Source: an uncultured bacterium (GTDB taxonomy: Bacteria > Chloroflexota > UBA5177 > JANWHV01). From it: a stretch of 64,000 bases of DNA. The translations under genes and the position numbers were made by a program. This document shows, in pieces, positions 1-45,991 of the stretch. The notes beneath the pieces were generated by a model. It was not told the DNA's origin. It searched no databases and was given only the letters and a program-made list of their open reading frames with translations. The stretch is taken from NCBI GenBank assembly GCA_963729625.1, contig CAVSOU010000005.1:12302-76301 (forward strand), read 5' to 3'. Every line of letters starts with the position of its first letter. Positions within the stretch are counted from its first letter, which is position 1.

Positions 1-288
1 CCTCGGTCAGTGCCTCGTTGAGGTTCAGCGCCCGGGCGATCGAGCGGGCGATCTGCGCGACCTCCATCGAGTGCGTCAGGCGCGTGCGATACAGGTCGCC
101 CTCGTGGTTGACGAACACCTGCGTCTTGTAGACCAGGCGCCGGAAGGCGTTGGAGTGCACGATGCGGTCGCGGTCGCGCTGGAACTCATCGCGGTACTGC
201 GGCGGCGGCTCCGGATGGCGGCGACCGCGGGAGAGTTCACTCCGGGCGGCGTACGGCGCGAGGTTTGCGCTGTCGGTAGCCGCGTCAT
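1..288 (-). CDS. dGTP triphosphohydrolase-like HD-domain protein, N-terminal part (gene continues past the window edge); probable 1-nt indel just after the start codon
   Basis: Minus-strand reading gives [82 protein letters not shown], the conserved N-terminus of Dgt-type dGTPases. The only ATG (286-288) is in a different frame from this reading. Confidence 0.6.
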
Positions 289-291
289 GGC

Positions 292-1368
292 CTACCCGAA
301 GTGCGCAGCAAGTGTGGCGGCCAGTACGTCGTCAGGATAGTCCGCGGTAAAGCGGGCCCGGCCGAGCGCCTCAAGCAGCACGAGCCTGATCCGGCCACCC
401 TTCACCTTCTTGTCCACACTCATGTACTGGCGGGCGCGCTCGGCGCCGATCCGCGGCGGCGGCGTCGCAAGCCCCGCACGATCCAGTAGCTCCGCCACCC
501 GTTTGACGTCTGCGGCCGCGATCAGACCCAGGCGCGCCGACATGTCGGCAGCGATGACCATGCCGGCCGCGACCGCCTCGCCGTGGAGCCACTGCGTATA
601 GCCGGTGGCGGCTTCTATCGCGTGGCCGAAGGTATGGCCGAAGTTCAGCAGTGCCCGCTCGCCCTGCTCGTGCTCATCACGCAGCACGACCTGGGCCTTG
701 AGCTCGCAGGAGCGGTGGATCGCATGGGCGAGCGCCGCGCGCATCCAGGCGCAGCAGCGCATCCAGGTTCTGCTCCAGCCACGCCAGGAAGTCCGCATCC
801 AGACACGAGCCGTACTTGATGACCTCGGCAAGGCCCGCCCGCAGTTCGCGGATCGGCAGGGTCGCCAGGGTCGAGTGTCGGAGATCACCGCACGGGGCTG
901 GTGGAAGGCGCCGATGAGATTCTTGCCGCCCGGGTGGTTGACGCCGGTCTTGCCGCCGACCGAGGAGTCCACCTGCGCCAGAAGCGTGGTGGGAACCTGC
1001 GCAAAGCCGACGCCGCGCTGGTAGCAGGCGGCGGAGAAGCCCGCGAGGTCTCCAACCACGCCGCCTCCCAGGGCCAGCACGATGCTGTCGCGCCCGAAGC
1101 GGTTGGCCACCAGCACGTCGAGGACGCGCGAGACATTGTCCAGCGTCTTGTACTGCTCGCCATCGGGCAAACGCAGGTCAACGATGCGGCGGTCCTTGAG
1201 CGAGGCGGTCACCTGATCGGCGTACAGCGGACCCACGGTCGTGTTGGTAACCAGCAGGATGTCCTGTGCGCTCACGTAGGCAGGCACCGCGTGGCCTTCG
1301 GCCAGCAGCGATTGCCCGATCAGGATCGGATAGGCGCGTTCACCCAGGGCGACATCCAGCTTCAGCAC
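292..1368 (-). CDS. aroB: 3-dehydroquinate synthase, with an internal out-of-frame stretch of about 45 codons (approx 740-875) bounded by two compensating indels
   Basis: 358-aa ORF with [58 protein letters not shown] and [30 protein letters not shown]. The middle reads as junk ([20 protein letters not shown]...), while the adjacent frame gives [22 protein letters not shown]...[16 protein letters not shown]. Confidence 0.85.
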
Positions 1369-1446
1369 GGTGATCAGACTGCCTCTTAAGCCTTAAGCCA
1401 CGAACAGGGCCCCAAGTATACGGCCGGACCGCGCGATCGCGGGGAC

Positions 1447-2001
1447 TCAGGTCTCCTCGAACTCGGGGATCGGACCCTCGTGGCCGCGGACTTCCCGCAG
1501 AATGTGTTCGGCCACCTTCTGCACGCGGCGGTGATCGGTGGGCACGATGTAGTCGGCCATCTGCCGGTAGAACGGCTCGCGGTCAATCCTAAGCTTGCGC
1601 AGCCGCTCCCCCAGGTCCCCGTCACGCAGCAGGGGCCGCCCGCGGCCGCTGCCCACGCGCTGCATCTGCTGTCCCAGGGAGGTCTCAAGGTAGATGACCG
1701 TACCGTGCTGGGTCAGCTGTTCCCGGTTCGCCGCCATGAGAATGGCCCCGCCGCCGGTGGCCATGACGATCGGCTCCAGCAGCACCAGCGCCTCGATCGC
1801 CTCGCGCTCGCGCCGCCTGAAGCCCGCCTCCCCCTCACGCTCGAAGATCAGCGGGATGTCGACGCCCGTACGGCGCTCCACCTCTGCGTCACTGTCGTAG
1901 AAGGGCACCTCCAGCAGACGTGCAAGCTGGCGTCCCACGGCGGTCTTGCCCGAGCCCATGGGTCCAATGAGGTAGATGTTGCGCTTGCCGATCATGCTCA
2001 T
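1447..2001 (-). CDS. aroK: shikimate kinase
   Basis: 184-aa intact ORF with Walker A IYLIGPMGSGKTAVGRQLA and ATGGGAIL. Located immediately upstream of aroB, as in the conserved pilMNOPQ-aroK-aroB arrangement. Confidence 0.9.
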   Translation of the reverse strand: MSMIGKRNIYLIGPMGSGKTAVGRQLARLLEVPFYDSDAEVERRTGVDIPLIFEREGEAGFRRREREAIEALVLLEPIVMATGGGAILMAANREQLTQHGTVIYLETSLGQQMQRVGSGRGRPLLRDGDLGERLRKLRIDREPFYRQMADYIVPTDHRRVQKVAEHILREVRGHEGPIPEFEET

Positions 2002-2011
2002 GAGGAACGAA

Positions 2012-2036
2012 AACGGCCGCCCTTTCGGCGGCCGTT
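2012..2036 (-). terminator. perfect 10-bp stem / 5-nt loop hairpin downstream of the Ig-repeat lipoprotein gene
   Basis: aacggccgcc-ctttc-ggcggccgtt; on the minus strand it is followed by TTTCGTT. It lies 28 nt after the stop codon at 2064-2066 and 10 nt before the annotated aroK start. Confidence 0.5.
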
Positions 2037-2063
2037 CTCAGTCTAACCCGTTCTGCTGCGGTT

Positions 2064-4304
2064 TTAGTTCAGGTCGGTGCAGAGCACATCCTGTCCGTAG
2101 GGGCTGAACTCGCCCGGCAGCGCCGAGGTGGTCGTCGTGATGTAAGTGGCGAGCTGCGGCAGGTAGAAGGTTGCCGTAACCGTCGACACCGAGCCCGCCA
2201 CCTGCGTCGTGGCCGTCAGCAGCACCTCCGACCAGATGGCGTGGTCTTCCGGATACACGACGTTGAAGGTCGCGGCGCCGGTGCTGTCGGTCGTTACCGT
2301 GCCGGGGCTTACGACCGCTACATTGGGTACCGTCACCGCACCGCCCAGGCCCTCGAAGCAGGTGGCGGTGACATCGGGTGGAAGTGGGGCTGGAGGGTCA
2401 ATTGACCAGACCTGGCTGCCGCCAACGTTCTGGATAGTCCATTGGCCCTTGCGGAAGCCAATGGTCTGGACGTTCAGCGTCACGACGGCGCCGGCGACCG
2501 GGTTACCGGCGGCGTCCACCGCGAGCACCGAATACGGCAGCAGGAACTGCGTCTGGGGGGCGTTTTCAGCCAGCTTGATGCCCGTTCCCAGCGACAGGTT
2601 CACCGACTGTCCACCGACGGTGAACTGCAGCGAACTGCTGAGTGCGGTGCCACGCACCGTGGCAGCGACCATGACGCCCAGATAGGTGCTGCTGGTGCCC
2701 GTCGCGGTGTAGACGGTCTGCGCCACGCCCTGCGCATTGGTCACCGCCGAGGCGGCCGAGAGGCTGCCACCGGTGCTGTCCGTCAGCTGGAAGTCCACCG
2801 TCTGGTTGGCCACCAGGTTGTTCTGGGCGTCGGTCACGACAGCACTGATCGTGGTGGTGCCTTGCGTCTGCACAGTCGCCGGCGCCGCCTGCAGGACCAG
2901 CTTGGTCGGGTTGGTCGCAACGAAATTCAAGGGCAGCTGCGCGGAAACCGGCGAGCCGCCGGAGGTCGCGCTGGCGATAATGGTGCCGGGTCCTGCGGTC
3001 GTCGCATACACGTACACCGTGGCCATACCGGTTCCGTCCGTGGTCGCCGTCGCCGACGAGGAGAACGTATAGGGATTGGTAACCGCGGACACGGAGCCGC
3101 GCGTCGTCGTGAAGGTCACGGGCGTGTTGGCAACCGGGCCGCTCGTGGTGGTCCAGAGCACGGACACCGCGGTAAGTCCGGTAGTCGAGGGCGCCACAGG
3201 CGCCGCCGTCACGATCGGCAGCGGCGTGGCCGCCGTGGTGGTCGACGCCGCGGTAAACCCGAAACTCTGATTGCTGACGGCAACCGTCTGCTTGGCGCTG
3301 GCCCCAAGACCGGCGACCGTGATCGTGTCGGAGCTCGCGGCGTTCACGGCCTTCAGCGTGAAGGTCCCCTGGCCACCGGCGTTGGTCGTAACCGTCGCGG
3401 GCGTGATCGTGTTGCCTGCAGAAGACGTGACGGTGACTACGCCCGCCGAGATCGGCGTGCCGCCGGAATCCACCAGCGCGATGTTGTAGGTGCCGGCAGC
3501 GCCGGCCTGGATGAGGCTGGAGGGGCCACTGAGCGTGATGGCCGTGCCCGCCACATTGACGTTGATGTTCGCGGTGCTGCTGCCGGAGGTAGCCGTCACC
3601 GTGATCGCACGGTTGGTCGGGTCTCCGGCCGTGTTCAACACGATGGTCGCGGTGCCATTGGCGCCGGTGACGGTCGGATTCGAGCCCTGCAGGCCACCGG
3701 AGGTCGCCGTGAACGTGACCGGCACGCCGGAGAGGAGCTGGTTGGTGGCGCTGCGCACGTAGGCCGTGATCGTCACCGGCGAGGAACCGTTGGAGGCGGT
3801 CTGCGGGGAGCTGGTGGAAATCGTGACCGTCTGGCCGGCGCTGACCACCGATACCTGTGTGGTGCCCTTCACCGCACCGATCGCGGCGGTGACGGTAATC
3901 GTGCTGCCTGCCGCTGCGCCGTTAGAGACCAGGGTCGCGGTTGCGACGCCGCTGGCACTGGTGGTCCCGGAGGTCACCGTCAGGGCACCGCCCGTGGTGG
4001 ACGTGAAGGTCACGGTCGCGCCCGATACCGCAACGTTGCTGGCGCTCAGCGCCGTGGCCGTGATGGTCACCTTGCCGGAACCGTCGGCCGGGAGCGAGGT
4101 TGCGCTGGTAGTGACCGACACGGTGGCTACCGTTGAACTCGCCGCGCTCGACGCGCTCGTGTTGGAGAAGGAGCCGTTGGAACCGCCGCCGCAGGCGCTA
4201 AGCAGCGTGCCCGCCAGGAAAGCGGCCACCAACCAGGACGTGACCGACCGCAGTCGCGCGCTCAAGGCCACATTCCATGTAGATATACGCATCATATAAG
4301 TCAC
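2064..4304 (-). CDS. large surface lipoprotein with about 6-7 tandem bacterial Ig-like (Big_1/invasin-type) repeats and a Cys-containing C-terminal domain
   Basis: 746-aa intact ORF. Signal peptide plus lipobox (LAGTLLSAC-GGGS). S/T/A/V/G-rich repeats of roughly 85-95 aa follow the pattern ADG..VTITAT....V.GA.VTF.....G.L......T...G.A... Confidence 0.75.
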   Translation of the reverse strand: MTYMMRISTWNVALSARLRSVTSWLVAAFLAGTLLSACGGGSNGSFSNTSASSAASSTVATVSVTTSATSLPADGSGKVTITATALSASNVAVSGATVTFTSTTGGALTVTSGTTSASGVATATLVSNGAAAGSTITVTAAIGAVKGTTQVSVVSAGQTVTISTSSPQTASNGSSPVTITAYVRSATNQLLSGVPVTFTATSGGLQGSNPTVTGANGTATIVLNTAGDPTNRAITVTATSGSSTANINVNVAGTAITLSGPSSLIQAGAAGTYNIALVDSGGTPISAGVVTVTSSAGNTITPATVTTNAGGQGTFTLKAVNAASSDTITVAGLGASAKQTVAVSNQSFGFTAASTTTAATPLPIVTAAPVAPSTTGLTAVSVLWTTTSGPVANTPVTFTTTRGSVSAVTNPYTFSSSATATTDGTGMATVYVYATTAGPGTIIASATSGGSPVSAQLPLNFVATNPTKLVLQAAPATVQTQGTTTISAVVTDAQNNLVANQTVDFQLTDSTGGSLSAASAVTNAQGVAQTVYTATGTSSTYLGVMVAATVRGTALSSSLQFTVGGQSVNLSLGTGIKLAENAPQTQFLLPYSVLAVDAAGNPVAGAVVTLNVQTIGFRKGQWTIQNVGGSQVWSIDPPAPLPPDVTATCFEGLGGAVTVPNVAVVSPGTVTTDSTGAATFNVVYPEDHAIWSEVLLTATTQVAGSVSTVTATFYLPQLATYITTTTSALPGEFSPYGQDVLCTDLN

Positions 4305-4373
4305 CTAAAAAACCTTAGTGCCAACGTTCGGGTCACCAGTGGGGTCATCCGTCTTCGCGCCGTCCGGGCGCGT

Positions 4374-6581
4374 CTAGTAAACGTTCACGCCTTCACGCAG
4401 GATCTTCGGCGTGATGAAGATCAGCAGCTCGGTCTTGTTGTTGATCTTGGTCGTTGTCTTGAACAGGTTGCCGAGCACCGGGATATCGCCGAGCAGCGGC
4501 ACCTTGTTCGAGTTGTCGGTACGCGTGGTCTCGAGGATGCCGCCGAGCACCACGGTCTGGCCGTCGCTGACCAGCACCTGGTGGTGATCTCGCGGGTGTC
4601 GATCGACGGCACGTTCACGCCGCCGGAGGTCACGACCGACCGTGCCGACGCTGTCCTTCTTCACGTCGAGGTCCAGGATCACGCGGTTATCCGGCGTGAT
4701 CAGCGGCGTCACCTTGCAGCGACAGCACGGCCTTCTTGAACTGCATCGTCGTGGCGCCGCTGGAGGCCGACTGCCTGGTACGGGATTTCGATGCCCTGCA
4801 TGATGGTCGCCTGCTTCTGGTTCGCGGTGATGACGCGCGGCGAGGAGATGACCTCGCCGCGGCCTTCCGTCTGCGCGGCCGAGAGTTCCAGGTCGACGAT
4901 GTAGCTCCGACCCAGCAGCGATCAGCGCGAGGCTGCCGGCGGGGTTCGGCCACGGGCAGGTTCACCTTGTAGCGGTTGGCCGCGCTCGCGCCGGTGGCCA
5001 CGCTCACCGGGTAGGGCGACCGTTGGATGTCGAGGTTGTTCAGCGCCGAGCTCAGGATCGTGTCGGTGCCCGCCGCCGGTGCCGGAGATGGAGAGCAGGC
5101 CGTTGTTGCCGTTGGTCTGCGTCGCCGGTGATGCCGGCGCGCGCGCCGAGATCGCGCTCGAAGGTGTCGCTGACGATGACGATGCGCGCCTCGATCAGCA
5201 CCTGGCGCACCGGCACGTCCAGCGTCGCACGAGCCGGCGGACGTTGCCGAGCTGTCGGCGGTGTCCTGGACCAGCAGCGTGTTGGTGCGTTCGTCGATCG
5301 ACACGCTGCCGCGCGAGCGACAGCATCGAGTCCTTGCCGCCCCACTGCCGCCGCCTGCCCGCCAGCCTTGACTGAGCTATCAGCGAGGCGAGTCGGTGAC
5401 CTTGGCGTAGTTGACCTGCAGGAACTCGGTGCGCAGCGGCGACAGCTCCTGGATGTCCTTGCGGGCGGCCAGGTCCGCCTTCTCGCGCGTGCCGCCAGCT
5501 CCTCGGTCGGCGCCGATGATGATCACGTTGTCCTGGCGCCGCTTGTCGAGGCCCTTGGTGCGCAGCACGATGTCGAGCGCCTGGTCCCAGGGCACGTTCT
5601 GCAGGCGCAGCGTGAGGTTGCCGGTGACCGAGTCGCTGACGACGATGTTCTGGCCGCTGGTGTCGGCCAGCAGCTGCAGCACGGCGCGCGACGTCGATGT
5701 CCTGGAAGTTCAGCGTCAGGCGCTCGCCCGTGTATTCCGTCTTGTCCGCCTCGGCCTGACGCCTTGCGGCGCGCGGCTTGATCTCGACGGTGTACTGGTT
5801 GTCGGACTGGTAGGCGAGCTGCTCGAAATCGCCCTGCGCGCTGATCACCAGGCGCGAGCTGCCCTCGACGCGCAGCGCATCGACAGGTCTGCACCGGCGT
5901 CGCGAAGTCCATGACGTCGTAGCGGCGCATGCAGGTTCTTCGGCAGTCGCGTGCCGGCGAAATCGACGACGACCTGGTTGCCCTCCTGGCGCACGTTGAC
6001 CGGCGTGCGCGGATCGGTGAGCTGCACGATCACGCGGCCGGTGCCGTCGGAGCCGCGGCGGAAGTCGATGGTGCGGATCGCCGCGCTCGCGGTCGCGGCC
6101 GCACGGCGCCGGCGCAGCGGCGCAGCCGCGGCGGCCGCCGGCGCAGCGCCCGCGGCGCTTCGCCGAGCGTGACGATGATGTTGTTGCCGTCGACCCGGGT
6201 CTTGTAGGGCAGCAGCGTGGTCGACGTTCACCACCAGGCGGGTGCGGCCGTTGGCCTCGGCGGCGAGCACCGTGTCGACGCCGCCGTTGCGCACGTCGAT
6301 GCGGCGGGAGGCCAGCGCCAGCGCCGTGTTCGGCAGGTCGAGCGCGATGCGCGCCGGCTTGTCGATCGTGAACGGCAGCGGCTGGGGCGCCGGGCCGCTT
6401 AAGCTGCAGCTGCAGCTCAGACTGCTGACCCGGCAGGGTCTGCACGTCGATGGCTTCCAGCTTGTTGGCAGGGGCATCCGCCGCGCGGGCCGTCTGGACC
6501 GCGACCAATCCACCGAGAGGCGGCCGTGGCCACGAGGACCAGCGCCTGGAGGAATTTGTTAACGGCGATATAAGGCTTCAT
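4374..6581 (-). pseudogene. pilQ: type IV pilus secretin PilQ, broken by many frameshifts (at least 8 frame changes traced by eye)
   Basis: Pieces in different frames: MKPYIAVNKFLQALVLVATAAS (signal peptide); AMIN-like FTIDKPARIALDLPNTALA...GRTRLVVNV and IRTIDFRRGSDGTGRVIVQL; LTLNFQDIDV-RAVLQLLADTSGQNIVVSDSVTGNLTLRLQNVPWDQALDIVLRTKGL; SIDERTNTLLVQDT; RQVLIEARIV; and the secretin C-terminus DGQTVVLGGILE...VPLLGDIPVLGNLFK...ELLIFITPKIL. Confidence 0.85.
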
Positions 6582-6601
6582 TCGCATTGTCTCCCTGCCG
6601 A

Positions 6602-7133
6602 TCATTCGTTCAGAGCCAACGAGGCGGGTCGCTCGATGTAGCCGCCGAGACCGTCCGGGACGATTTCGATGAGATTGATTTTGCTGGCCGTGATCGCGAG
6701 CACGTTGCCGTCGTTCTGTCCCAGGTAATTGCCCGGCTGCACCTGGTGCACGCAGGCCGTCCCTCGACTGCACCAGACCGTAGATCTGGCCTCCCAGACT
6801 TGAGCGTGCCGACCATCTTCAGCGTGTCCAGCGAAAACTGCTCGAGGAACTCGCGGTTGCGGTGCGAGTCCGGGCGCAGGCTACCGGTTCGCCGCCGGAC
6901 CCGCGCCGCCCGGCAGGAACGGCGAACGCAGTCGACTGATCCGCGTAGATGAAGGTCTCGTAGGGCTTGACCTCGGGCAGCGGCTCGACGCGCCGGCCTG
7001 TTCCTTCTTGGTCTGCTTGATGCACTTCTCCAGATCCTGGCTCGCGGCTGGAGCAGCCGGCGAGCGTCGCGGCGGCCAGCACCGCTGCGAGCAGGCAGCA
7101 GCGCTTGCGTGTTCTGGTAGCGTCATGGCGCAC
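6602..7133 (-). pseudogene. pilP: pilus assembly lipoprotein PilP, frameshifted
   Basis: Lipobox LAAATLAGCSS, then EPLPEVKPYETFIYADQS, FLEQFSLDTLKMVGTLKSG and C-terminal VHQVQPGNYLGQNDGNVLAITASKINLIEIVPDGLGGYIERPASLALNE lie in different frames. Confidence 0.75.
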
Positions 7134-7781
7134 CCGGTCGCTTGTGCTTCTCGCTCTTGTCGCCGCTCGGCCTCGGCGCCTGGCAGCTCTTCCTCGTCGA
7201 GGTAGCGATAGGTCTTGGCGGTCACGTCCAGCTGCAGCTGGTCGTAGGCCGGCCTTGCCGCGACCGGCTTGATCTCGATGTCGTGCAGCGTGACGATGCG
7301 CGGCAGCGCCGCGATGCCGCTGACGAAGTCGCCGAACTGGTGGTAGCTGCCGGCCAGCCGGATCTTGATCGGCAGCTCCGCGTAGAAGTCGCTGCTCTGC
7401 TCGTGGCCGGCTGGAACAGCTTCTCCTGCAGGCCCGCGGCGAGGCCGGTCTGCGAGATGTCGACCAGCAGGTTCGGCACCTCGGTCTTGCCGGGCAGCTG
7501 GCGCAGCATCGCGCCGAAGGAGCGCTCGATGTCCGCCAGCTGCTGCTTGTAGAGCTCCAGATTCACGGCCTTGCTGCTTGTCCTCGAACTCGCTGCGCAG
7601 CTCCTGCTCTTCGGCCTGGCGGCGGTCGAGCTCCGGCCGCTGGTTCGCTCCACACGAAGAAATAGCCGCAGCGCGGCAAACACCACGAAAACCAGGCGCC
7701 GAGGCGCCCAGCGCGCACGGGCAGCGGCCAGCGGCCCGGATCGCGCGGATCCAGAGATCTTCAGTTCATCGAGAGGTTCAT
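7123..7781 (-). pseudogene. pilO: pilus assembly protein PilO, frameshifted
   Basis: MNLSMNELK..., VNLELYKQQLADIERSFGAMLRQLPGKTEVPNLLVDISQTGLAAGLQEKLFQPA, IKIRLAGSYHQFGDFVSGIAALPRIVTLHDIEIKP and TAKTYRYLDEEE are spread over several frames. ATGA overlaps with pilN and pilP. Confidence 0.75.
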
Positions 7782-8387
7782 GGCTTGGCCCCCTTCTTGA
7801 CCGCGGCCTTGCCGCTGTCTTCGCGGCTCTCGCCTCGTCATCGGTGAGCGTCGTCGCCTGATCCGCGTAGAGCGTGAAGTCGCTGCCGACGGCGTTGTCC
7901 TTGCTTGCTCTCGACCACCTGCAGCTCCGGGTTCTCCATCCACTGGGAGGCGTCGATGTTGCGCATGAAGGTCGAGACGCGGTTGCTGGACTGCGCGACG
8001 CCGTGCGAGCTTGACGCTTGTTGGTCTGCTTGATCGCCGTGAGATACGCGCCGTCGGGCATGGTCTTCACGAGCTCGTCGAACAGGTGCACGATCTCCGG
8101 GCGCGTGCGCTGCAGCTTCTCGATGATCTCCATGCGCGCGATGAACCGCTGCTTTGCGTTCTCCAGATCGTTGATCTCCTCGATCTGCGCGTCGAGCTTG
8201 ACGATCTCGTTCCGCAGCAGCTCGTTGCGCTGCTGCTGCGTCGTCGATCGAGCTCGAACATCAGGTATGCCGCGAAGGCGAGCCACCAGCGGCGGCCAGC
8301 GTCGCGCCACCGAGGGCGACGATGAAGCGCGAGCCTGCGATCTTTGCGCTGTTGCTCGCGCCAGGGAAGTAGGTTTATGCGTGGCAT
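7778..8387 (-). pseudogene. pilN: pilus assembly protein PilN, frameshifted
   Basis: MPRINLLPWREQQRK start. QQRNELLRNEIVKLDAQIEEINDLENAKQRFIARMEIIEKLQRTRPEIVHLFDELVKTMPDGAYLTAIKQ lies in another frame. Confidence 0.75.
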
Positions 8388-8388
8388 G

Positions 8389-9459
8389 TCAGTCGAAGCT
8401 TCGCAGCGCAAGGCCGCAGGCGGTGAGCAGGGCCGTGGCGTCGCGCTGCACCGCCTGGGCCTTGGCGCGGGAGGAGAGCTTCATCTGGCCGAGCGGATCG
8501 CCCTTCTCGGCGGCGACGCCGACGCGGCTGGAGATCACGTCGGCGACGCCCGGAATGTTGGCGCAGCCGCCGCAGATCAGGATCTTCTCGGGCTGCGTCG
8601 CGGCCGGCTGCCGGAGGCCAGGTAGAACTGCAGCGAGCGGCTGACCTGCTGGGTCATGTCGTCGATGAACGGGTCGAGCACTTCGGACTGGTAGTTGCCC
8701 GGCAGGCCGCCTTCCTTCTTGGCGCGCCCGGCTTCCTCCATCGACAGGCCGTAGGTGCGCATGATTTCTTCGGTCAGCTGCTGGCCGCCGAAGGCGAAGT
8801 CGCGCGTGTAGACGACCTTCAGGTTGCGCAGCACGCTGAAGGTGGTGCTGCTGGCGCCGAAGTCGACGACCGCGATCGGTGCGGTCGATGCCGCCGTCGG
8901 GCATCTGGTGGCGTCATCAGGCGCAGGCGTTCTCGAGCGCGAAGGCCTCGACGTCGACGATGCTGCGCGGTCAGGCCCGGCGGCGTGCACCGCGGCCTGG
9001 CGCTGCTCGACGTTCTCGGTGCGGGTCGCGACCAGCAGCACGTCCTTGGTCTCGGGATCCTTCTCGGACGGCCCCAGGACCTCGAAGTCGTAGCTGACCT
9101 CGTCCATCGGGAACGGGATGTACTGGTCGGCCTGCATTTCGACCTGGGCCTCGAGCTCGCTCTCGCGCAGGCTCGCGCGGCATCTGGATGACTTTGGTGA
9201 TGGCGGCGTCGCCGCTGATCGCGATGGCGGCCTCGCGGCTCTTGGCGCCGGAGCGCTTGACCGCACGGCTGATCGCCTCGCCGACGGCTTCGGCATCGAC
9301 GATGGCCTTCTCGTTGATCGCGTTCTGCGGCGTGGGCTCGGCCGCATAGGACTCGACGCGGTATTGCCCGCCCGACATCGACAGCTCGATCAGCTTCACC
9401 GAGGAGGTGGTGATGTCAAGACCCAGCAAGGGGCGGTACTTACGCGGAAATAGAAACAT
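8389..9459 (-). pseudogene. pilM: pilus assembly ATPase-fold protein PilM, frameshifted
   Basis: MFLFPRKYRPLLGLDITTSSVKLIELS...AIVDAEAVGEAISRAVKRSGAKSREAAIAISG; VVDFGASSTTFSVLRNLKVVYTRDFAFGGQQLTEEIMRTYGLS; KILICGGCANIPGVADVISSRVGV. Three overlapping ORF fragments. Confidence 0.8.
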
Positions 9460-9765
9460 TGTTTTTCCTTTCCGTGTTCAGCTGACGTCCGGCGCCGTAA
9501 ATCGCTGGTTCCACTATATACATAAGTTACGCAGAATATAGCTCAGGCAACGACGTTAAATTGAAAGTGAGCATTCAAATGCCTTCGGCGTGACACTTGC
9601 GCCACATGTCGCGCCAACATTTCGGTCCTATGGTCCATCAGCTCTGGGTGGCACCCATGGCACACTGCTGCCCGCCTCGACCACCATCGCTGGCCATGGC
9701 CGGATCGAGCGCGCAACGCACTTGTCAGTCAAATCCGTAGACCGGAAGCTTTCGTCCACCTTTCA

Positions 9766-12348
9766 GTGAGTTTGCTAAGTCGCAGTACTGCTCGCTGCTG
9801 ATCAGCGGATGCCGTTGGCGCTGTTCCCTGTGCTGGGCGTCTTCGCCAATTCTGCCTGCGCCTAGTGCTATACATCTGGCCCGTCGCTGCCCAGTGCCGT
9901 TGATCGCATGCGCAACGTGGAGATGCAGGTGCCCCTGCGCGTCTACACCCGCGACGGCGGCCTGATCGCCCAGATCGGCGAGCAGCGGCGCATCCCGGTG
10001 ACCTTCGACAGATCCCCGCCGCTGGTCCAGCACGCCTTCCTGGCGGCCGAGGACGACCGCTTCTTCCAGCACCACGGCATCGACTGACCGGGCGTGCTGC
10101 GCGCCATGGCGGTGGACCTGATCTCCGGCGACCGCGCCCAGGGCGCCAGCACCATCACCATGCAGGCCGCGCGCAACATGTTCCTCACGCTCGACAAGAC
10201 CTGACGCCGCAAGCTCCAGGAAGTCTTCGTCACCTACCGCATGGAAAGCGAGTTCACCAAGCAGGAGATCCTGGCGACCTACCTGAACGTGATCTTCTTC
10301 GGGCAGCGCGCCTACGGCGTCGCGGCAGCCGCCGAGACCTACTTCGGCAAGAGCCCTCGACCAGCTGACGGTGTCGGAGGCCGCGACCCTCGCCGGCATC
10401 ATCCAGGCGCCCTCGCGCTACAACCCCATCGATCAACCCCCAGCTGGCCAATGCCCGCCGCACCTACGTGCTGCGGCGCATGCTGGAGCTGGGCTACATC
10501 GACGCCGAGGCCGCACGGCGGCCAACGCCGAGCCGATCGACGCCCGCGGCTACGCCCCCCTGTTCGACGTGGAGGCCCCGTACGTGGCGGAAATGGCCCG
10601 CCAGGAGCTGGTGCGCCGGCGTATGGCCCCGACGGCCGTGAACTGCCGGCTACAAGGTCTACACGACCATCGACGGGCGCCTGCAGACCGCCGCCAACCG
10701 CGCGCTGCGATCGGCCTGATCGAATACGACCGCCGCCACGGCTATCGCGGGGCGAGTCGAGCACGCGACCCTGCCACCGAATCTCGAGCCGGCTCGCCCT
10801 GGACCAGCTGCTCTCCAAGCACGAGCCGGTCGGGCATCCTGCAGCCGGCCGTGGTCGCTCTCGGTGGCACCGACCGTCCGCGCGGGTCTACATCCGCGGC
10901 ATCGGGCACCGCCCAGATCGACTGGGACGGCATGGCCTGGGCCCGCACCGCTGGTCAACGGGCGCCTGGGCGGCTGCCGAAGAAGGCCGGTGACGTGCTC
11001 GCCCGCGGCGACGTCGTCTACGTGGTCACCGACCGGCACGGCAATGCCCAGCTTGCCCAGATCCCGGAGGCGCAGGTCGGCGCTGGTGGCGATGGACCCC
11101 GACGACGGCGCCGTGGTCGCCCTGGTCGGCGGCTTCGACTACTACAGCAACCAGTTCAACCGCGTGACGCAGGCCAAACGCCAGCCGGGCTCCGGCTTCA
11201 AGCCCTTCCTGTACTCCGCGGCGCTCGACAACGGCTTCACACCCGCCTCGATCATCCTGGACACGCCGATCGTGATCGAAGGCAACGGGATCGAGGGCGC
11301 CTGGCGCCCGCAGGACTTCGAACGGGAATTCGGCGGCCCGACCCGGATGCGCGAGGCGCTGGTGGAGTCGCTGAACCTGGTGTCGATCCGCATCCTGCGC
11401 GACCTGGGCACCGCGACCGCGATCGACTACATGACGCGCTTTGGCTTTGAGAAGGCGGCACTGCCCGACAACCTGACGCTGGCCCTCGGCACGACGCAGG
11501 CGACGCCGCTGCAGATGGTTACCGGCTACGCGACCTTCGCCAACGGTGGCTACAAGGTCGACGCCCTACCTGATCGAGCGGATCGAGAACTCCGCCGGCA
11601 AGGTGCTCTTCCAGGCCGCACCCGCCGTGGTCTGCCGCGAGTGCGAGAGCGCCGCAAGCTCCGCTGCGGTGCTGGAGGCCGCAGCGGCCCCTGCAACCGA
11701 CCGGGGGAGGCCGCGCCGCTCACGCTGCCGCCGCTGCCGCCGACCCCCTCGCCTGAGCTCATCGCCGCGCGCAACGCCGATGCTCCGGCGGGACTTCAGG
11801 CCCTGGCGGCACGCTCTGCGTCGGCATCGCTCCTCAGGCCTGAGCGCATCGCGCCGCGGGTGATCACGCCGCAGAACGACTATCTCATGGTCGACATGAT
11901 GGCCGACGTGATTCGCCGCGGTACCGGCCACGGCGCCATGGTGCTGGGACGCAAGGATCTGGCCGGCAAGACCGGCACGACAAACCAGGTTCGCGACACC
12001 TGGTTCAATGGCTTCAACACCAGCCTCGTCAGCACCGTGTGGGTCGGCTATGACATCGAGCAGCCGCTGGGTGAGACCGAGCAGGGCGCGCGTACGGCGC
12101 TGCCGATCTGGGTACACTTCATGCGCGAGGCCTTGAAGGGCGTGCCCGAGAAGGTGCGACCGATGCCGCCGGGCATCGTGCAGCTGCACGTCTCCTCCCG
12201 CACCGGGGCGATTGCCAACGCCAGTGACCCCGACGCGATCACTGAAGTCTTCATGATCACGCATCTGCCTGCAGGGGTCCGTGCCGGATCGGCAGATTCG
12301 CCCACGCCGCCCCCGCCGCAGCAAGGCACGGGCGAGGGCATCTTCTAG
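9766..12348 (+). pseudogene. mrcA: penicillin-binding protein 1A (bifunctional glycosyltransferase/transpeptidase), multiple frameshifts plus two apparent in-frame TGA codons; start approximate
   Basis: GT51 motifs FLAAEDDRFFQHHGID, GASTITMQAARNMFL, RMESEFTKQEILATYLNVIFFGQRAYGVAAAAETYFGK, EAATLAGIIQAPSRYNP. Transpeptidase motifs ALVAMDPDDGAVVALVGGFDYYSNQFNRVTQAKRQPGSGFKPFLY and GKTGTTNQVRDTWFNGF. Divergent from pilM as in many proteobacteria. Confidence 0.85.
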
Positions 12349-12359
12349 AGACCAGAGAC

Positions 12360-12993
12360 ATGGGCAAGAAGCCTCCGACGCGCGCGGGACCATCTGCGCG
12401 CCGCCATCGCGCAGGAGTCCGCGCGGCTCATGGCCGAGCACGGTATCCGCGACTTCGGCGTGGCCAAGCGCAAGGCCGCCGAGCGTTTCGGCGTTACCGA
12501 CGGCCCGCTGCTGCCCCGTAACACCGAGATCGAGGCGGCGCTGCAGTCCTACCAACGTCTGTTTGGCCGGGGTAGCCACGGGCAGAACCTGGAACGCCTG
12601 CGCCGCGCCGCGATCAAGGCGATGAAGCTGCTCGCAGCCTTCGAGCCGCGACTCGTGGGCCCGGTCCTGTCCGGTACCGCGACCGAGCATACGGACGTGC
12701 AGCTGCACCTGTTCTCCGACAGCCCGGAAGCCGTCTACATCAGCCTCATGGACCGCCAGCTGCCGCACGAGGTGATCGACCGGCGCGTGAAGATGCAGGC
12801 CGACCGGCAGATCACCGTGCCGGGCCTGCGATTCGCGCTCGGCGACGCGACGGTGGAGGCCCTGGTGTTCCCGAGCGACGGCATCCGCCAGGCCCCCATC
12901 AGCCCGGTGGATGGGAAACCGATGCGCCGCGCCAGCGCCGCTGAAATCGACGCCTTGCTGGATAGGGCGGGTGATGTGAATTACGCCTCATGA
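12360..12993 (+). pseudogene. conserved hypothetical protein (possible nucleotidyltransferase fold); one frameshift near codon 9
   Basis: ATG at 12360 (MGKKPPTRA...) joins the 187-aa ORF 12430-12993 (MAEHGIRDFGVAKRKAAERFGV...VGPVLSGTATEHTDVQLHLFSD...) only after a 1-nt frame change near 12385. Confidence 0.55.
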
Positions 12994-13151
12994 CGCCCCC
13001 AAATGGACCGAAGCCCGCACGGGGTAGTGGCGGCTGCGCGTTTGTTCACATTTTGCGCGGCAGCATAGGGGGTTAGGCAGGTCATTGAAGTACCATATTT
13101 GCAGCGGTCGCTGACCTGCCTGTCGCATCTTAATTTGGCCTGGGTCCTCCA

Positions 13152-34250: not shown

Positions 34251-34556
34251 ATGAGGAAGCCAAGACGTAACCACTCAGCGGCATTCAAGGCGCGGGTGGC
34301 CCTGGAGGCGATCCGGGGTGAGAAGACGGTGGCGCGAGATTGCGGCCCACCACGAGGTCCATGCGACCCAGGTGAGCGGCCTGGAAGACGGAGCTGCTGG
34401 AGAACGCTGGCGGCGGTCTTTGGCGGGGATGTGCTGGCTGCGGACGGCAAGGAGCGGATCCGGGAGCTGCAGGCGAAGATCGGGCAGCTGACGATGGAGA
34501 ATGATTTTTTAGAAAGCGCGCTCGGGAAATTCCCCGGCCTGAGCGGCAAGCGATGA
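34251..34556 (+). pseudogene. IS3-family orfA (HTH transposase subunit), about 3 indels within roughly 100 nt
   Basis: MRKPRRNHSAAFKARVALEAIRGEKTVA / EIAAHHEVHATQV / AWKTELLENA / AVFGG...ERIRELQAKIGQLTMENDFLESALGK are read in three different frames. Confidence 0.75.
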
Positions 34557-40740: not shown

Positions 40741-41892
40741 TCACCTCACAGGTTTCCAGGTCACCATTCGTTCGCCCCGAACATAACGCACTGTGGCGAG
40801 CAACGATGCCAAGTTGGTCAGAACGAAATAGTATGGCTTTCCCAATAGCTTCGCGCGCCCACCGCTGCGCTGAGCGCGAAATCCGGCGGCACCAAGTGCT
40901 AGGAATAACAACTGGCCGGCGAAGAATACCTGGTATAGCCACGTTTCTAAAATGAAGAGATTTGCGCAGAGCATCACTAGCCAAATGAAAGGGGAAGCGT
41001 AGCGCAGCGCCTTGTGCGACCAGAGTTCCCATGCAAACACACGGAAGCGGAGAGGGTTCAGGAATCGCCGCTCTGTTACCAGTGCATTGATGCTTCGTAT
41101 GCCAACACGGACCCGCATAGCCAATTCACTTCCCGGGCGCTCCAGCGTATCTTCAAAACATACTGCTTTGGGCTCAAGGACTGTACGAAGGCCGATTTCC
41201 CGCATGTGAAGGGCGATAACGAAATCACTTATGAGTTCTGGAGGTATTGGTCGGTACGCACGCCGCCTTACCGCGTAGAGACAACCACTTACGCCAACTA
41301 AGGAGCCCATCGCACTTTCTGCACGTCTAAGTCCGAGTTCATATTGCCAATACTGTGTTCCTCCCTCACCCGTGAGGCTGTCGCCACGTGCCTCGTAAAC
41401 CAGAGCCCCGGCGACACAACCTATGGCCTCATCCGCAAAATTCTCTACGAGCGCAATCAATGCATCGTGTGCTAACCGAGTGGTCGCATCCGTAAAGATG
41501 ACGACTTCGCCCGTCGCCGCTCGGACCGCCTCATTTTGGCAGGCAGTCTTACCCCGCCTTCCTTCCACGCGAAGCAGTCGCACTTGTTCCTGTCCATAAC
41601 CAGAAACTATGGCATCAGTCCCATCGATGGAGCCGTCGGACGCAACGATAATTTCAAGTAGAGATTTTGGGTATTCGAGACTCGTGATGTTATCCAGCTT
41701 GGATCGAATCCCGACTTCCTCATTGTAGGCAGTGATTACCACCGAGATACGCGGGCGTATCGGCGCCTTTCGTACGGGTATGTTCTTTAGGCTTGCTACG
41801 CAGCGCGCCAAAAGTGGGTACCCCACGTAGACGTAAACCAAGAGAAACCCAGACAACCAAAATGTAATAGTCGGCATCATCATTCCGTACAA
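40741..41892 (-). CDS. GT2-family glycosyltransferase with N- and C-terminal membrane helices
   Basis: 383-aa intact ORF: ISVVITAYNEE..., EIIVASDGSIDGT, IFTDATT, GSLVGVSGCLYAVRR, plus C-terminal hydrophobic segments. Confidence 0.85.
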   Translation of the reverse strand: MYGMMMPTITFWLSGFLLVYVYVGYPLLARCVASLKNIPVRKAPIRPRISVVITAYNEEVGIRSKLDNITSLEYPKSLLEIIVASDGSIDGTDAIVSGYGQEQVRLLRVEGRRGKTACQNEAVRAATGEVVIFTDATTRLAHDALIALVENFADEAIGCVAGALVYEARGDSLTGEGGTQYWQYELGLRRAESAMGSLVGVSGCLYAVRRRAYRPIPPELISDFVIALHMREIGLRTVLEPKAVCFEDTLERPGSELAMRVRVGIRSINALVTERRFLNPLRFRVFAWELWSHKALRYASPFIWLVMLCANLFILETWLYQVFFAGQLLFLALGAAGFRAQRSGGRAKLLGKPYYFVLTNLASLLATVRYVRGERMVTWKPVR

Positions 41893-41948
41893 TTTTCACC
41901 AATCCGGAAAGCATCTAGGGGGCACGGCCAAAACCTATGGCAGCCCAA

Positions 41949-42749
41949 TCAGGCAGCCTTGCGAGCAACCAATAGCACAACGTGCTTGCCAGCCAGCGGC
42001 GCCTCCGGAGATGACAGCCGCGTTATCGTCTGTATGACAAGGAACCCGGCTCTTTTTAGGCAGTCCTGAGCACTAGCTATTGTATAGCTCCGTCTCATCG
42101 GCTGGCGAATGGGCTTGTGGATCTTCTTCCAAGCCCATCTTGCGAACGCAACGGGCCTGAATTTTGGGAAGAAATACTCTCGTAGCTTTAGTTGCAAACG
42201 GTCGGCTAGCCCCATGTCAGTGTGTATAAGCGCCACGTAAGCACCGCCCTTCTTTAGGACACGAAAGATCTCACGTGTCGCCAGATCAGGATCGGAAAAG
42301 TGCTCCATGACACCAACGGACGTGACGGCAGCAAAATATCCATCAGCGAAGGGCAGAAATTCCGCTTGGGCAGCGGCACACTGAGCGCCCGACAATTGGC
42401 GAGCCCGCTGAAGGGCTTGAATCGAGGGGTCAACACCGAACCGCTCATCGCTACTCATGGCGGCCAACAACAACCCCTCGCCGCAGCCAACTTCCAGCAG
42501 GCGGCCGGGAGCGAGTGCACCTACTAGGGCTGAAAAATATTTCCGGAAGCCTTCCTCCCGGCCCTGATCTTCCCAGACATTTGAATGTTCCGTGTAGATG
42601 GCGTCATAAACTGCACCAACTGCAGACTTCGCGCCCGTCCCCTTTGGGGTCAAGAAGTAGGGAACCTCCCCAAACACTTCGTACTCGACGTTGCACGATC
42701 GACATGCAAATGAATCCAACGTTCCCTTACACCGCGGGCAGACATACAT
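41949..42749 (-). CDS. class I SAM-dependent methyltransferase with an N-terminal Cys4 zinc-ribbon
   Basis: MYVCPRCKGTL..FACRSCNVEY, then LLEVGCGEGLLL (motif I), FAAVTSVGVMEHF, VLKKGGAYVAL. 266-aa intact ORF. Confidence 0.8.
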   Translation of the reverse strand: MYVCPRCKGTLDSFACRSCNVEYEVFGEVPYFLTPKGTGAKSAVGAVYDAIYTEHSNVWEDQGREEGFRKYFSALVGALAPGRLLEVGCGEGLLLAAMSSDERFGVDPSIQALQRARQLSGAQCAAAQAEFLPFADGYFAAVTSVGVMEHFSDPDLATREIFRVLKKGGAYVALIHTDMGLADRLQLKLREYFFPKFRPVAFARWAWKKIHKPIRQPMRRSYTIASAQDCLKRAGFLVIQTITRLSSPEAPLAGKHVVLLVARKAA

Positions 42750-43401
42750 AGCTCACCTATTCAACATGCCAATTGGTACTCAGAGATAACAGCTCCCGCC
42801 CCAAGGGACGGACTGATTGACACAATCGTCGCGTTCCGCGACGAGCACCCGTTCTAGAGTGGCAACCTACAAGGCTAAGAATACACCGGACGATCAAGAA
42901 CTTGCGAGAATCCCTGCTCAGTTAGGATCCGTCCGGTAAGGCGGAACTCCTTTCTCCCCCAGCCACGGGCTGGATTGCCCCGCGATGGACGAGGTACATA
43001 TGGCATGTGCAATAGCAATCCTCGCAGCGATGCCTAGCGAATCGCAACGACCCCCAACACCGGCCAAGTATTGCCTTCCAGGAGCGAGCTCAGTTGTGCA
43101 CGCTAAACGAACATGGCGTTAAGCAACCATAATATCCACGCTTATCTCATGCGCTTTCGTGAAGTTGATTGAGCAACTCGGCGTGTTATGAATAATTTAG
43201 ACAAGATCTCTGATCACAGACGGACGTCTTGCGCCGCGGCTCCGGCAGCCCGAGAGCAGGCCCCCGTCGAATGCAACCATGAACTTGCTGTACTGGGCGG
43301 CAGGATTCTATGCCGATAACCGGACCACCAACGCTGCCGCCCGCGGACGTGGAAATTGATACGAGCCACGACGCCCGCAATATCAACTGCCCCGCAAGAC
43401 G

Positions 43402-44877
43402 TTAAGCCAGACCTAGCACTCTTGCCGCAATCCCGATAAGCATAAGCAGACGGGCTCGGCAGAACAGCCACAAACCAGCAATGTAGACGACCCCGCCAAG
43501 CAATACTTCTAAAGGTGCCAGCACCAGCAGCGGCAGGCGACCCTCACACGCAGACGCAAATCCATTGATTAGAAGCCACATCGCGGCAGCGACTAACGCA
43601 GGCACCGCCGGGGGACCTAGGATATCCAGCCAGCCAATTTGTAATTTTCTTGCTATACGCCAGGTGGACGCGAGGTACACCAGCGGGAAACCAACTGCCC
43701 AAGCGCCCGCCATAGCGACAACGCTTATCTGTGATGCGATATAGAGCAGTGGACCTACAACTAGCGCCCACACGAGCACATTTCCGAAGGACAAGCCGGT
43801 GTAGCCGCTACCCACGAGGACCGCATCGCTGATCGAGTAGCTGACACGCAACGGCATAATTAGGCAAAAGAGCGAGAATGGTATTGCCGCATTCGCCCAG
43901 CGCTGACCTAGAAGCAGCGGGAGGATAGTCGGACCTATCGCCGCGAGCCCCCAGAACACCGGGAAGGTAACGCACGCAGCAAGCGCCAGCATCTGCTTGA
44001 ATCCGCTGAGCCATGCGCCACGGTCTGCGACCTTTGCAGAAAACGTAGGCATTGAAACCTGATTCACTATCTCAGCAATTCGATCCAAGAGCGTATGCGA
44101 GAGTGTCTTCGCAGTCGAGTAAACGCCAAGCGGCGCGGCTCCCAGGGTCCGTCCAATCAGAAATGTGTCGAACTCCTGTATCGCAAACCACGTTATCTTT
44201 TGTGGAATCAAGTGGCGGGATGTCGCCATGTAGGGTCGTAGCAGAGAGTACGAAGTACACATCGCCATCGGCGGCCTAGCGTACCAGTGCAACAGCGCAG
44301 CGCGACCAACAAGACCAAGCAAGGTCGACACGACCAGCGCCCAGTAGCCGAAGCCCTGCCACGCCATGACCACCGTAACCAGCCCCTGAGTAATACCAAT
44401 AGATGCTTGAGTGATCGCGAGCTCCCGGAAGCGCAGCCCCATAAGAAGCATTGCGTTCGGCACGATGCACAAGGCCGTTAATGGCAGCTGCAAAGATGAT
44501 GCCCGCAGCACCTCGGTCAGTCTCGGCTGGTGAAAGAAGTGAGCCATAGTCGGCGCGATAAAACATAGCCCCACTGCAGTAACCGAAGATGCGATCAGCA
44601 GAAAGGTTGCTACCGTTGCCAACACTTCCCGTGAGTCCGGCCTTTTGTGCACGAGCGCCGCGGTCATACCGCCTTCGAGAATTAGCGTAGTAAGCACTGT
44701 CACCAATCCCGAAAGCGCGACAAGGCCATAGTCGGCAGGCAGGAGAAATCTCACCGACAGGATTGTTAGCAGCCACGTGGAAGCTTGGAGAACAATCCGA
44801 GATAGCCCAATCCAGCGCAAGCCCAGCACGGCTTGGTGCAGGTGGCCCGACTTGGGTGAAGTTTCCTTTGATGTCAA
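43402..44877 (-). CDS. Wzx-like polysaccharide flippase (MOP/PST superfamily)
   Basis: 491-aa intact ORF with about 12-14 hydrophobic helices. N-terminal ...RIVLQASTWLLTILSVRFLLPADYGLVAL pattern typical of polysaccharide biosynthesis/export (PST) proteins. Confidence 0.75.
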   Translation of the reverse strand: MTSKETSPKSGHLHQAVLGLRWIGLSRIVLQASTWLLTILSVRFLLPADYGLVALSGLVTVLTTLILEGGMTAALVHKRPDSREVLATVATFLLIASSVTAVGLCFIAPTMAHFFHQPRLTEVLRASSLQLPLTALCIVPNAMLLMGLRFRELAITQASIGITQGLVTVVMAWQGFGYWALVVSTLLGLVGRAALLHWYARPPMAMCTSYSLLRPYMATSRHLIPQKITWFAIQEFDTFLIGRTLGAAPLGVYSTAKTLSHTLLDRIAEIVNQVSMPTFSAKVADRGAWLSGFKQMLALAACVTFPVFWGLAAIGPTILPLLLGQRWANAAIPFSLFCLIMPLRVSYSISDAVLVGSGYTGLSFGNVLVWALVVGPLLYIASQISVVAMAGAWAVGFPLVYLASTWRIARKLQIGWLDILGPPAVPALVAAAMWLLINGFASACEGRLPLLVLAPLEVLLGGVVYIAGLWLFCRARLLMLIGIAARVLGLA

Positions 44878-44988
44878 TTCAACTGATTCCTAGTGGTCGC
44901 CCGCGCCGGGCACCGCAACGATTACGCCCTTCCAGCGGTTCTTGTGTCTTTACTGAGCCATCTTTCGATAACGTTCCTGAAGCGACTC

Positions 44989-45991
44989 TCAAGACATCAG
45001 GCGCGGAAATAGGCCAAGGCGTTTGGCATCAAAGATAGCGATGCCTGCCCGCGGCCACTGCGTAAGTTCATGCAGAACTCGATATACGGCCTTACCGATC
45101 ATATTGTGGAACCGATATAGCAAACTTTTCAGCGCACCCAACCGGTACAGTATGATGCAGTACGGCAACTGATTGGGGCGCAGTCCTGTGGCCAGCAATA
45201 TCGCATAGAACCAAATAGCAATGCCCGCGACTACCAGAGACTCTGCTACCTGGGGGCATTCGTGAACCGGAGGCGGCCCGGCATGGCGACGAATATTAAC
45301 GCTACTAGGCAGGCAAACAGCATCGCAGCACGTGACCAAATACATCCCCGAGCCCGTCCCAGATAGCAGGCGCCACTCCAACAAAGAATAGATCATGTGG
45401 CATGAGAGCGAGCGACTTCAGGATTGGTGAGGTTGAGCAGGCAACCGCCGCCAGCAGAGGTAATAGCCAACTCACAAGAACTGCTCGGCATTTCGCATCC
45501 GCTCAACAAGGATTGTGACAAACACGGGCAGGCAGAACTTCATTTCCATGGCTAGTGTCCAAAATACGCTGTCGACGTTGCCACACCGAGGTACGCCCGC
45601 ACCAGTGTCTAGTTTGCCAATAACGTGCTTGCGTACGGCAAAGCATTACCCTGAAAAGACGGGATTGTCGTTGCAAACGCGCACGTCACGCCTATCCCAT
45701 GCATTGGGTATTGCCGAAGGAATCTATATGATACGAACGCGCGTCCCGCACGCTCTTCAGCGCTCCACAAAATGACAAATCCGCTAACAGGGAAGACCAG
45801 GCGCATGCTCAAGTGGTCGTATCAGGGCGCCTCCTGTAGGTCCCTGTACGCCCAAACTTGTGGGCGGCGTCCGGCCGTCGCTGAGCGGCAGGTAAGCGGT
45901 ACAGGACAACGCGGGTGGCTGCTACAAACCTCAGTAGATCCAATACGGGAACTCGCTCATGTTTGTCGCGGGCAACGCTCCCCACCCGCAC
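44989..45991 (-). pseudogene. acyltransferase family 3 (membrane O-acyltransferase), heavily frameshifted with stops
   Basis: ERVPVLDLLRFVAATRVVLYRL (compare R...LD.LR..AA..VV..H), GFVILWSAEERAGRAFVSYRFLRQYPMHGIG (compare FF.LSGF....R......F...R..RI.P) and hydrophobic C-terminal pieces, each in a different frame. Confidence 0.55.

Follow-up and report, generated by a model that had tools for sequence, protein, structure and literature searches.

The dense frameshifts in the type IV pilus genes (pilMNOPQ) and mrcA of the window (the whole stretch of 64,000 nucleotides that was analysed), together with the in-frame stops produced by paired indels, are very probably technical errors of the assembly consensus and not mutations. 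There is a strong case that the cluster they form is not a genuine biological feature and, since the lesions appear to be technical, we are confident that they provide no evidence for a true loss of pili or cell-wall functions.

Reading frames were followed with a codon-usage Viterbi trace, and indel events were scored per gene against intact copies in independent assemblies. When the 5.4-Mb assembly was scanned, the region from 4.4 to 12.35 kb was the densest frameshift cluster genome-wide, with 20 frameshift-like junctions in 7 kb compared to a large-contig background of about 0.6–0.85 per 10 kb. In the trace, the frame changes all along positions 4377–12343, and the Ig-repeat gene (2067–4242) and aroK (1450–2005) each remain in one frame. 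Scored against the closely related strain A (see below), about 88 frameshifting indels lie between approximately 4395 and 12.4 kb (8.6 kb); the 3.3-kb clean block, comprising the 5' end of aroB, aroK and the Ig-repeat gene, has none, against about 33 expected from the rate in the adjoining DNA. These data agree with the uneven distribution of lesions reported in a preliminary description of this DNA, including the intact state of aroK and the Ig-repeat gene, the lesions in aroB and dgt, and the several frame changes in each of pilP, pilO, pilN, pilM and mrcA (see table). Its figure of at least eight frame changes in pilQ proved to be an underestimate, as 30 events were counted. Also, the apparent TGA stops at 10085 and 10202 are indeed indel pairs: in comparison with the intact copy and with relatives, both lie inside short out-of-register stretches, each with one base lost at one edge and one gained at the other, fewer than 10 nt away.

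Features of the window, with positions in nt and the state of each feature
Feature	Position	Strand	State
dgt (dGTP triphosphohydrolase), 5' part	1..289	-	body intact; sole nearby ATG out of frame with body
aroB (3-dehydroquinate synthase)	292..1375	-	out-of-frame stretch ~704-876; diverges from strain A below ~1120
clean block	1120..4395		0 lesions; 100% identical to JGI 3300044796 contig L094 and Logan ERR11594402 contig L095
aroK (shikimate kinase)	1447..2001	-	intact; exact protein in two other public assemblies
Big_1 / Ig-repeat gene, 746 aa	2064..4304	-	intact
pilQ (type IV pilus secretin)	4374..6581	-	30 frameshifting indel events
pilP	6602..7126	-	8 frameshifting events
pilO	7123..7781	-	10 frameshifting events
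pilN	7776..8387	-	9 frameshifting events
pilM	8389..9459	-	8 frameshifting events; 1/257 family-invariant residues altered
mrcA (PBP1A)	9737..12348	+	22 frameshifting events
210-aa gene	12360..12993	+	1 frameshift near 5' end; 99.4% identical to L096
second clean block	41407..45255		100% identical to Logan ERR11594402 contig L177

The dgt product is 71% identical to the Dgt of locus L054 over 389 residues in a single frame. Compared with other Steroidobacteraceae, the Ig-repeat gene is an extra gene inserted between pilQ and aroK. The exopolysaccharide (EPS) genes at 45–50.5 kb are fragmented, and the region of 40.7–44.9 kb that had previously been traced as clean overlaps the second clean block. 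An exact look-up of a 187-residue ORF of the window gave no match, and no further copies of the window's putative IS elements were found elsewhere in this assembly.

A near-identical strain, here called strain A, is present in three independent public assemblies (a JGI contig, and Logan contigs from ERR11594402 and SRR35360338), in which pilM, pilN, pilO, pilP, pilQ and mrcA are intact. An exact look-up with AroK retrieved the JGI contig L094, encoding intact PilN, PilO, PilP and PilQ (734 residues), and the Logan contig L095, and a look-up with PilO retrieved the Logan contig L096, encoding intact MrcA (852 residues), PilM (354 residues), PilN, PilO and PilP. The intact strain-A genes carry the Pfam domains PilM_2, PilN, PilO, PilP and AMIN/STN/Secretin_N/Secretin, matching the pilMNOPQ architecture, and the window follows the same gene order, with pilMNOPQ beside mrcA and aroKB. 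Each of the six genes is also intact in 51–75 of 80 related loci, and the lesioned fragments are collinear with these as well as with strain A. The lesions are therefore dominated by indels in otherwise full-length, conserved and collinear coding sequence, as expected of consensus errors. Programmed frameshifting or recoding was considered and rejected, as there are dozens of sites and none of them is found in 15 aligned relatives or in strain A.

The lesion density in the window coincides with the divergence from strain A. Identity is complete throughout the first clean block and falls to 88–90% at about 4395, i.e. within pilQ, which has 88% nucleotide identity to the intact strain-A copy. 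The segment 4396–10900, with 88–92% identity, contains about one indel per 100 nt, and the segment 11000–13400, with 99% identity, has about four lesions. The gene mrcA extends over both: its 5' half shows about 89% amino acid identity to strain A, and its 3' half (beyond 11000) shows 99% nucleotide identity and still has three frameshifts. The change in identity across 10–11 kb is gradual. Block boundaries fall within pilQ, mrcA and aroB, and none falls between genes. Farther along the window, the identity of 41407–45255 to an independent Logan contig lasts until that contig stops (~45255), where the fragmented EPS-export genes start. A PKS block at 13.4–15.6 kb has few lesions despite being 30% divergent from L096, which is a point against the consensus-error explanation. 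Contig L095 carries the identical block and then branches off on either side.

Purifying selection on the encoded residues is strong despite the lesions. In a codon-by-codon comparison with strain A, 10 of the 936 family-invariant residues (the same residue in at least 95% of relatives) were changed, mostly conservatively, compared to 223 of the 925 variable residues. A PilM piece of 89 residues is 100% identical to PilM from several other species, and the 3' half of mrcA has 13 synonymous changes and one non-synonymous change in addition to its frameshifts (dN/dS 0.027). Conserved residues have thus not changed at the neutral rate expected of pseudogenes, and the relaxed divergence of the broken genes, proposed earlier as a sign of decay, is not seen in the substitution pattern. 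The overall dN/dS of the divergent part relative to strain A is 0.17–0.45, which is not very low, and 58 private amino acid changes were found in the window, where about 24 were expected from relatives whose nearest neighbour is about as distant. This modest excess could mean a slight relaxation, and unresolved loss/gain pairs together with a few substitution errors would be expected to have the same effect.

In mutation-accumulation studies, base substitutions are about ten times as frequent as small indels, and bacterial genomes show a deletional bias. In the lesioned genes, one-base insertions outnumber one-base deletions by about 3:1 (61 versus 20), and the inserted base is G or C in 80% of cases. 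Slippage does not explain the insertions, because 49 of the 61 are not in contact with an identical base (about 52% expected by chance). In 13 of the 20 one-base deletions the removed base lies outside a run, the deletions being weakly run-associated. The homopolymer context suggested in the preliminary description hence does not apply to the insertions, 12 of which touch an identical base, and applies weakly to the deletions. Neither the concentration at homopolymers expected of long-read errors nor the natural small-indel spectrum expected of pseudogenes was found, and the insertion-rich, non-homopolymer spectrum, which is unlike the classic nanopore error pattern, is a point against consensus errors. 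No large deletions or IS insertions were found in the lesioned genes.

We propose that the contig is a mosaic relative to strain A, which is present in three or more further public datasets and would be well supported. Blocks identical or 99% identical to strain A would have a well-supported or polished consensus and so be clean or nearly so. The remaining backbone, from a haplotype B that is about 10% divergent, may have had few or mixed reads for support and polishing, and a raw long-read-type consensus with about one indel per 100 nt would survive there. Possible causes of the poor consensus are a low depth of haplotype B, a mixed pile-up of A and B, or short-read polishing that was effective on A-like blocks alone. 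The artefact or mosaic-polishing option raised in the preliminary description is supported by the base-for-base match of clean blocks with independent contigs, the start of dirty blocks at the onset of divergence, and the intact selection. The public data searched yielded no intact haplotype B copy: scanning metagenomes with part of PilQ gave 87% amino acid identity at best, and a read-through PilN, used as a protein query, matched strain A best (77%). One candidate for haplotype B, P0003, was discarded, as it is merely a PilN with an internal duplication.

Two other technical scenarios were considered. The consensus could have been built from strains about 10% apart piled on one backbone, with both or neither allele kept at variable sites, giving one-base gains, losses and pairs; this sub-variant of the consensus-error explanation is a tentative possibility. 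The inserted bases, mostly unlike their neighbours, the loss/gain pairs a few bases apart, and the branching of strain A on both sides of the identical block in L095 would fit, but alleles of relatives at adjacent sites are not significantly over-represented among the inserted bases (p ~0.07), sites flanking insertions are no more variable than controls, and the distance of the window to the family consensus is not smaller than that of real sequences. The idea of a consensus of many species was dropped for the last reason. It also seems unlikely that clean regions are short-read contigs and dirty regions are bridges made from a few uncorrected long reads by hybrid assembly or gap filling. The sharp transitions at ~4395 and ~45255 and the termination of independent k-mer contigs near such transitions would agree with this, but the transition at 10–11 kb is gradual, and uncorrected long reads would be expected to show more indels than the rate of about 1% seen here.

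Real pseudogenisation, with the type IV pili, PBP1A and adjoining functions of a Steroidobacteraceae strain lost as small indels accumulated in the decaying genes, is very improbable. A whole operon and adjoining genes are affected, and the dN/dS of the divergent part, the excess of private residues and the missing intact copy of the exact haplotype in the public data searched could all be read in its favour. However, family-invariant residues are hardly touched, about 88 frameshifting indels are too many, given that no more than about 40 substitutions could be neutral, and the mostly non-slippage excess of insertions runs contrary to the bacterial deletional bias. Moreover, identity to independent assemblies is lost at the block boundaries, which lie within genes, and similar clusters affect unrelated genes in other parts of the assembly. 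Genuine decay in a lineage restricted to a host or niche, the other option of the preliminary description, is not supported in view of the absence of relaxation, the unnatural indels, lesions that track blocks and not functions, and the mis-binning of the contig (see below). We regard it as extremely improbable that haplotype B is real as assembled and reflects +1 insertions that arose very recently, in a burst and not by slippage, in a soil Steroidobacteraceae strain. It is equally hard to credit that such a burst, due to e.g. an error-prone polymerase or mutagenic repair, was limited to tracts not overwritten by strain-A recombination, and there is only the slightest chance that pili and PBP1A were inactivated before substitutions could build up.

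Consensus indels in long-read assemblies are documented to cause frameshifts in low-coverage metagenome-assembled genomes (MAGs), as detected with IDEEL-type tests for truncated genes (Sereika et al. 2022, PMC9262707). The window resembles these cases in that one-base indels fragment conserved genes, that this is worse where coverage or polishing is poor, and that essential genes of related MAGs are hit and completeness is depressed. It differs in the extreme clustering of lesions instead of an even spread, in an excess of insertions, and in errors that lie mostly off homopolymers, in contrast to the homopolymer deletions emphasized in the classic description. The window also resembles strain-collapsed or chimeric metagenome contigs, as blocks identical to strain A alternate with blocks about 10% divergent, and independent k-mer contigs break close to the switch points; the presence of two haplotypes in the source sample is presumed. 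With pseudogenes from reductive evolution in host-restricted bacteria it shares many adjoining genes broken by frameshifts and stops, but it differs in the unrelaxed conserved residues, the lack of a deletional bias and of large deletions or IS insertions, and lesions that follow DNA blocks and not functions.

Based on gene content and identity, the contig (C5) is a fragment of a soil Steroidobacteraceae genome mis-binned into a non-proteobacterial MAG. The case rests on these two properties because C5 could not be told apart from the main MAG contigs by tetranucleotide composition. A DNA search for the pil region in the GTDB relatives of the MAG gave no match; given the mis-binning, these genomes are not the true relatives of the contig. 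No paper was found for the sample and run accessions. Read literally, the lesions would imply that an uncultured soil lineage has lost twitching motility, PBP1A and exopolysaccharide export, an inference that would very probably be doubly wrong, because the lesions appear to be technical and the contig is foreign to the organism of its MAG. In long-contig MAGs from complex soil, frameshift clusters may thus flag strain-divergent, poorly supported blocks, which can be recognized without reads by exact-protein look-ups in independent assemblies followed by a check of family-invariant residues.

Finally, the lesion distribution follows assembly blocks and recurs elsewhere in the assembly, as expected of consensus errors. 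A further cluster on the same contig affects genes for an ABC ATPase, a GDSL esterase and fadD. Other clusters lie at C10:1249556-1254295 and C14:9745-12298, and an exact look-up of a LacI-type regulator beside the C10 cluster gave no match. The main MAG organism also has clusters, e.g. a xylose-isomerase-like gene split across two frames, and in a long-contig MAG of the same genus rpoB is spread over three frames. The completeness estimate of the MAG is depressed, at 87% in a 21-contig assembly.

The preliminary description had noted that frameshifts are crowded into pilMNOPQ and mrcA, leaving neighbouring genes clean. This uneven distribution is real and far beyond chance, as borne out by frame tracing, genome-wide ranking and the clean neighbouring block. 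A codon-usage model was trained on the assembly's long ORFs, and a seven-state Viterbi path gave the likeliest frame along every contig. About 30 frame changes were found across the pil-mrcA stretch, the fragments of which translate into clean, identifiable parts of PilQ, PilP, PilO, PilN, PilM and PBP1A; the same trace follows aroK and the Ig-repeat gene in a single unbroken frame each. The stretch is the top frameshift cluster of the whole genome, with 20 frameshift-like junctions in 7 kb (background on megabase contigs: 0.6-0.85 per 10 kb). At the local density, roughly one indel every 100 nt, some 33 lesions would be expected in the 3.3-kb clean block, against none observed.

Several lines of sequence evidence indicate that contig C5, which holds the window, is a Steroidobacteraceae (Gammaproteobacteria) contig mis-binned into a MAG of another lineage. 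A search with a PilM fragment returned 80 loci, nearly all labelled as Steroidobacteraceae or Gammaproteobacteria soil MAGs, the nearest of which has about 75% DNA identity to the window. The pilM, pilN, pilO, pilP, pilQ and mrcA genes are each intact at 51-75 of these 80 loci, and aroK directly follows pilQ in all three loci inspected in detail. The sole rpoB of the MAG sits on another contig (C10), is of a short, non-proteobacterial type and is 85-97% identical to that of same-genus genomes of the MAG, in which the best match to the window AroK has only 41% identity and a DNA search gave no match to the pil region. Moreover, second copies of aroK, aroB and dgt, about 40-45% identical to those of the window, are present on other contigs of the MAG. 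Tetranucleotide composition did not separate C5 from the rest of the MAG, which may be a reason for the mis-binning.

Exact look-up of the AroK sequence identified a JGI metagenome contig (L094, 3300044796) and a Logan contig (L095, ERR11594402), and look-up of the PilO of L094 identified a second Logan contig (L096, SRR35360338). Jointly, these contigs of a near-identical strain, here called strain A, encode intact PilM (354 aa), PilN, PilO, PilP, PilQ (734 aa) and MrcA (852 aa). Compared with strain A the window is a mosaic (see table), in which identity drops abruptly at about 4395, close to the 3' end of pilQ (some 20 nt upstream of its stop codon). L095 matches the window exactly only over the clean block, and beyond either edge it equals strain A, unlike the window. 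Look-up of the methyltransferase at 42 kb identified another ERR11594402 contig (L177), which is 100% identical to 41407-45255 and ends at the start of the fragmented EPS-export genes. As this mosaic and these end points show, lesion density follows divergence from the independently supported strain A, with block edges that disregard gene borders.

Segments and features discussed (window coordinates unless a contig is given)
Location	Feature	Identity to strain A	Lesions
1120-4395	clean block	100%	none
1450-2005	aroK		single unbroken frame
2064-4304	Ig-repeat gene		single unbroken frame (2067-4242)
4377-12343	pil-mrcA stretch		~30 frame changes
4396 to ~10000	divergent segment	88-90%	dense one-base indels
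~10000-11000	transition	climbs gradually	decreasing
11000-13400		99%	a few indels
13400-15600	PKS	~70%	few
15600-16300		100%	none
34400-35451	IS3-type transposase (rve core)		read in three frames
58400-59014	DJ-1/PfpI-like ORF		lone in-frame TAG (58743-58745)
C5:5063-7464	ABC ATPase, GDSL esterase, fadD		similar frameshift cluster
C10:1249556-1254295 (L178)	unrelated genes		dense frameshift cluster
C14:9745-12298 (L179)	unrelated genes		dense frameshift cluster
G001 C14:448517-449778	rpoB, codons 1-420		spread over three frames
L094:4147-8227	region with Ig-repeat gene and group II intron (RVT_1 + GIIM)

The PKS segment, about 70% identical to L096 without gaps and flanked on both sides by 99-100% identity, resembles the replacement of an allele or module through recombination. 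The Ig-repeat gene (746 aa, Big_1) is inserted between pilQ and aroK, is missing from the related loci and is 100% identical in two further public assemblies; in L094 a group II intron, not present in the window, separates it from aroK.

If a restricted lineage were losing pili, PBP1A and EPS export through decay, the other reading that had been left open, the record would look different. From what mutation-accumulation studies have established, substitutions in decaying genes should exceed indels several-fold and should hit conserved residues; the opposite is observed here. About 88 frameshifting indel events relative to strain A were counted in the six genes pilM, pilN, pilO, pilP, pilQ and mrcA and a 210-aa gene. 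In a codon-by-codon comparison without repair, only 10 of 936 family-invariant residues (defined as identical in 95% or more of 50-75 relatives) depart from strain A, mainly by conservative changes, versus 223 of 925 variable residues. PilM has 1 of 257 invariant residues changed despite 8 frameshifts, and the 3' half of mrcA, with three frameshifts, carries 13 synonymous and 1 non-synonymous differences (dN/dS 0.027). In the divergent part dN/dS relative to strain A is 0.17-0.45, and private residues in the window are about twice as numerous as in comparable relatives. Some of this is expected where loss/gain pairs align as mismatches and where a few bases are substitution errors, and a slight relaxation of selection may also contribute. 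Searches of public metagenomes and proteins for the divergent haplotype (B) in intact form were negative. The decay reading is unsupported.

The indel spectrum is likewise unnatural. Bacterial genomes have a deletional bias; the one-base events here comprise 61 insertions versus 20 deletions. G or C makes up 80% of the inserted bases, and 49 of the 61 insertions lack an adjoining identical base (chance expectation 52%), and therefore did not arise by replication slippage. This insertion-rich, non-homopolymer spectrum also differs from the textbook nanopore pattern. The two TGA codons singled out in mrcA (10085 and 10202) indeed lie within short out-of-register stretches, each flanked by a lost base and a gained base that are separated by less than 10 nt, which is typical consensus displacement. 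With lesions tracking divergence from strain A, and selection intact, the evidence favours an artefact, essentially the mosaic polishing considered in the preliminary description, and the frameshifts do not represent a genuine trait of the organism.

As to the exact technical cause, we infer that low depth of the minor haplotype, a mixed pile-up, or polishing effective only where reads of the abundant strain align could be responsible; a test for enrichment of both strain-SNP alleles kept in the consensus was not significant. Frameshifting indels are well documented in low-coverage long-read MAGs (PMC9262707). Similar clusters occur in unrelated genes elsewhere on C5 and on other contigs of the MAG, and several of the further ones lie no more than about 50 kb from a contig end; one of those belonging to the main MAG organism splits a xylose-isomerase-like TIM-barrel gene over two frames. 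In the same-genus long-contig MAG G001 (8 Mb, 20 contigs) the essential rpoB is affected, and these frameshifts are technical. The results are of use as a warning about the quality of this assembly and for diagnosing such error patches without reads.

One of the shifts in the IS3-type transposase may be the normal programmed -1 frameshift of this family rather than a lesion. The lone TAG of the DJ-1/PfpI-like ORF lies in a conserved segment just past the nucleophile cysteine, with no change of frame.
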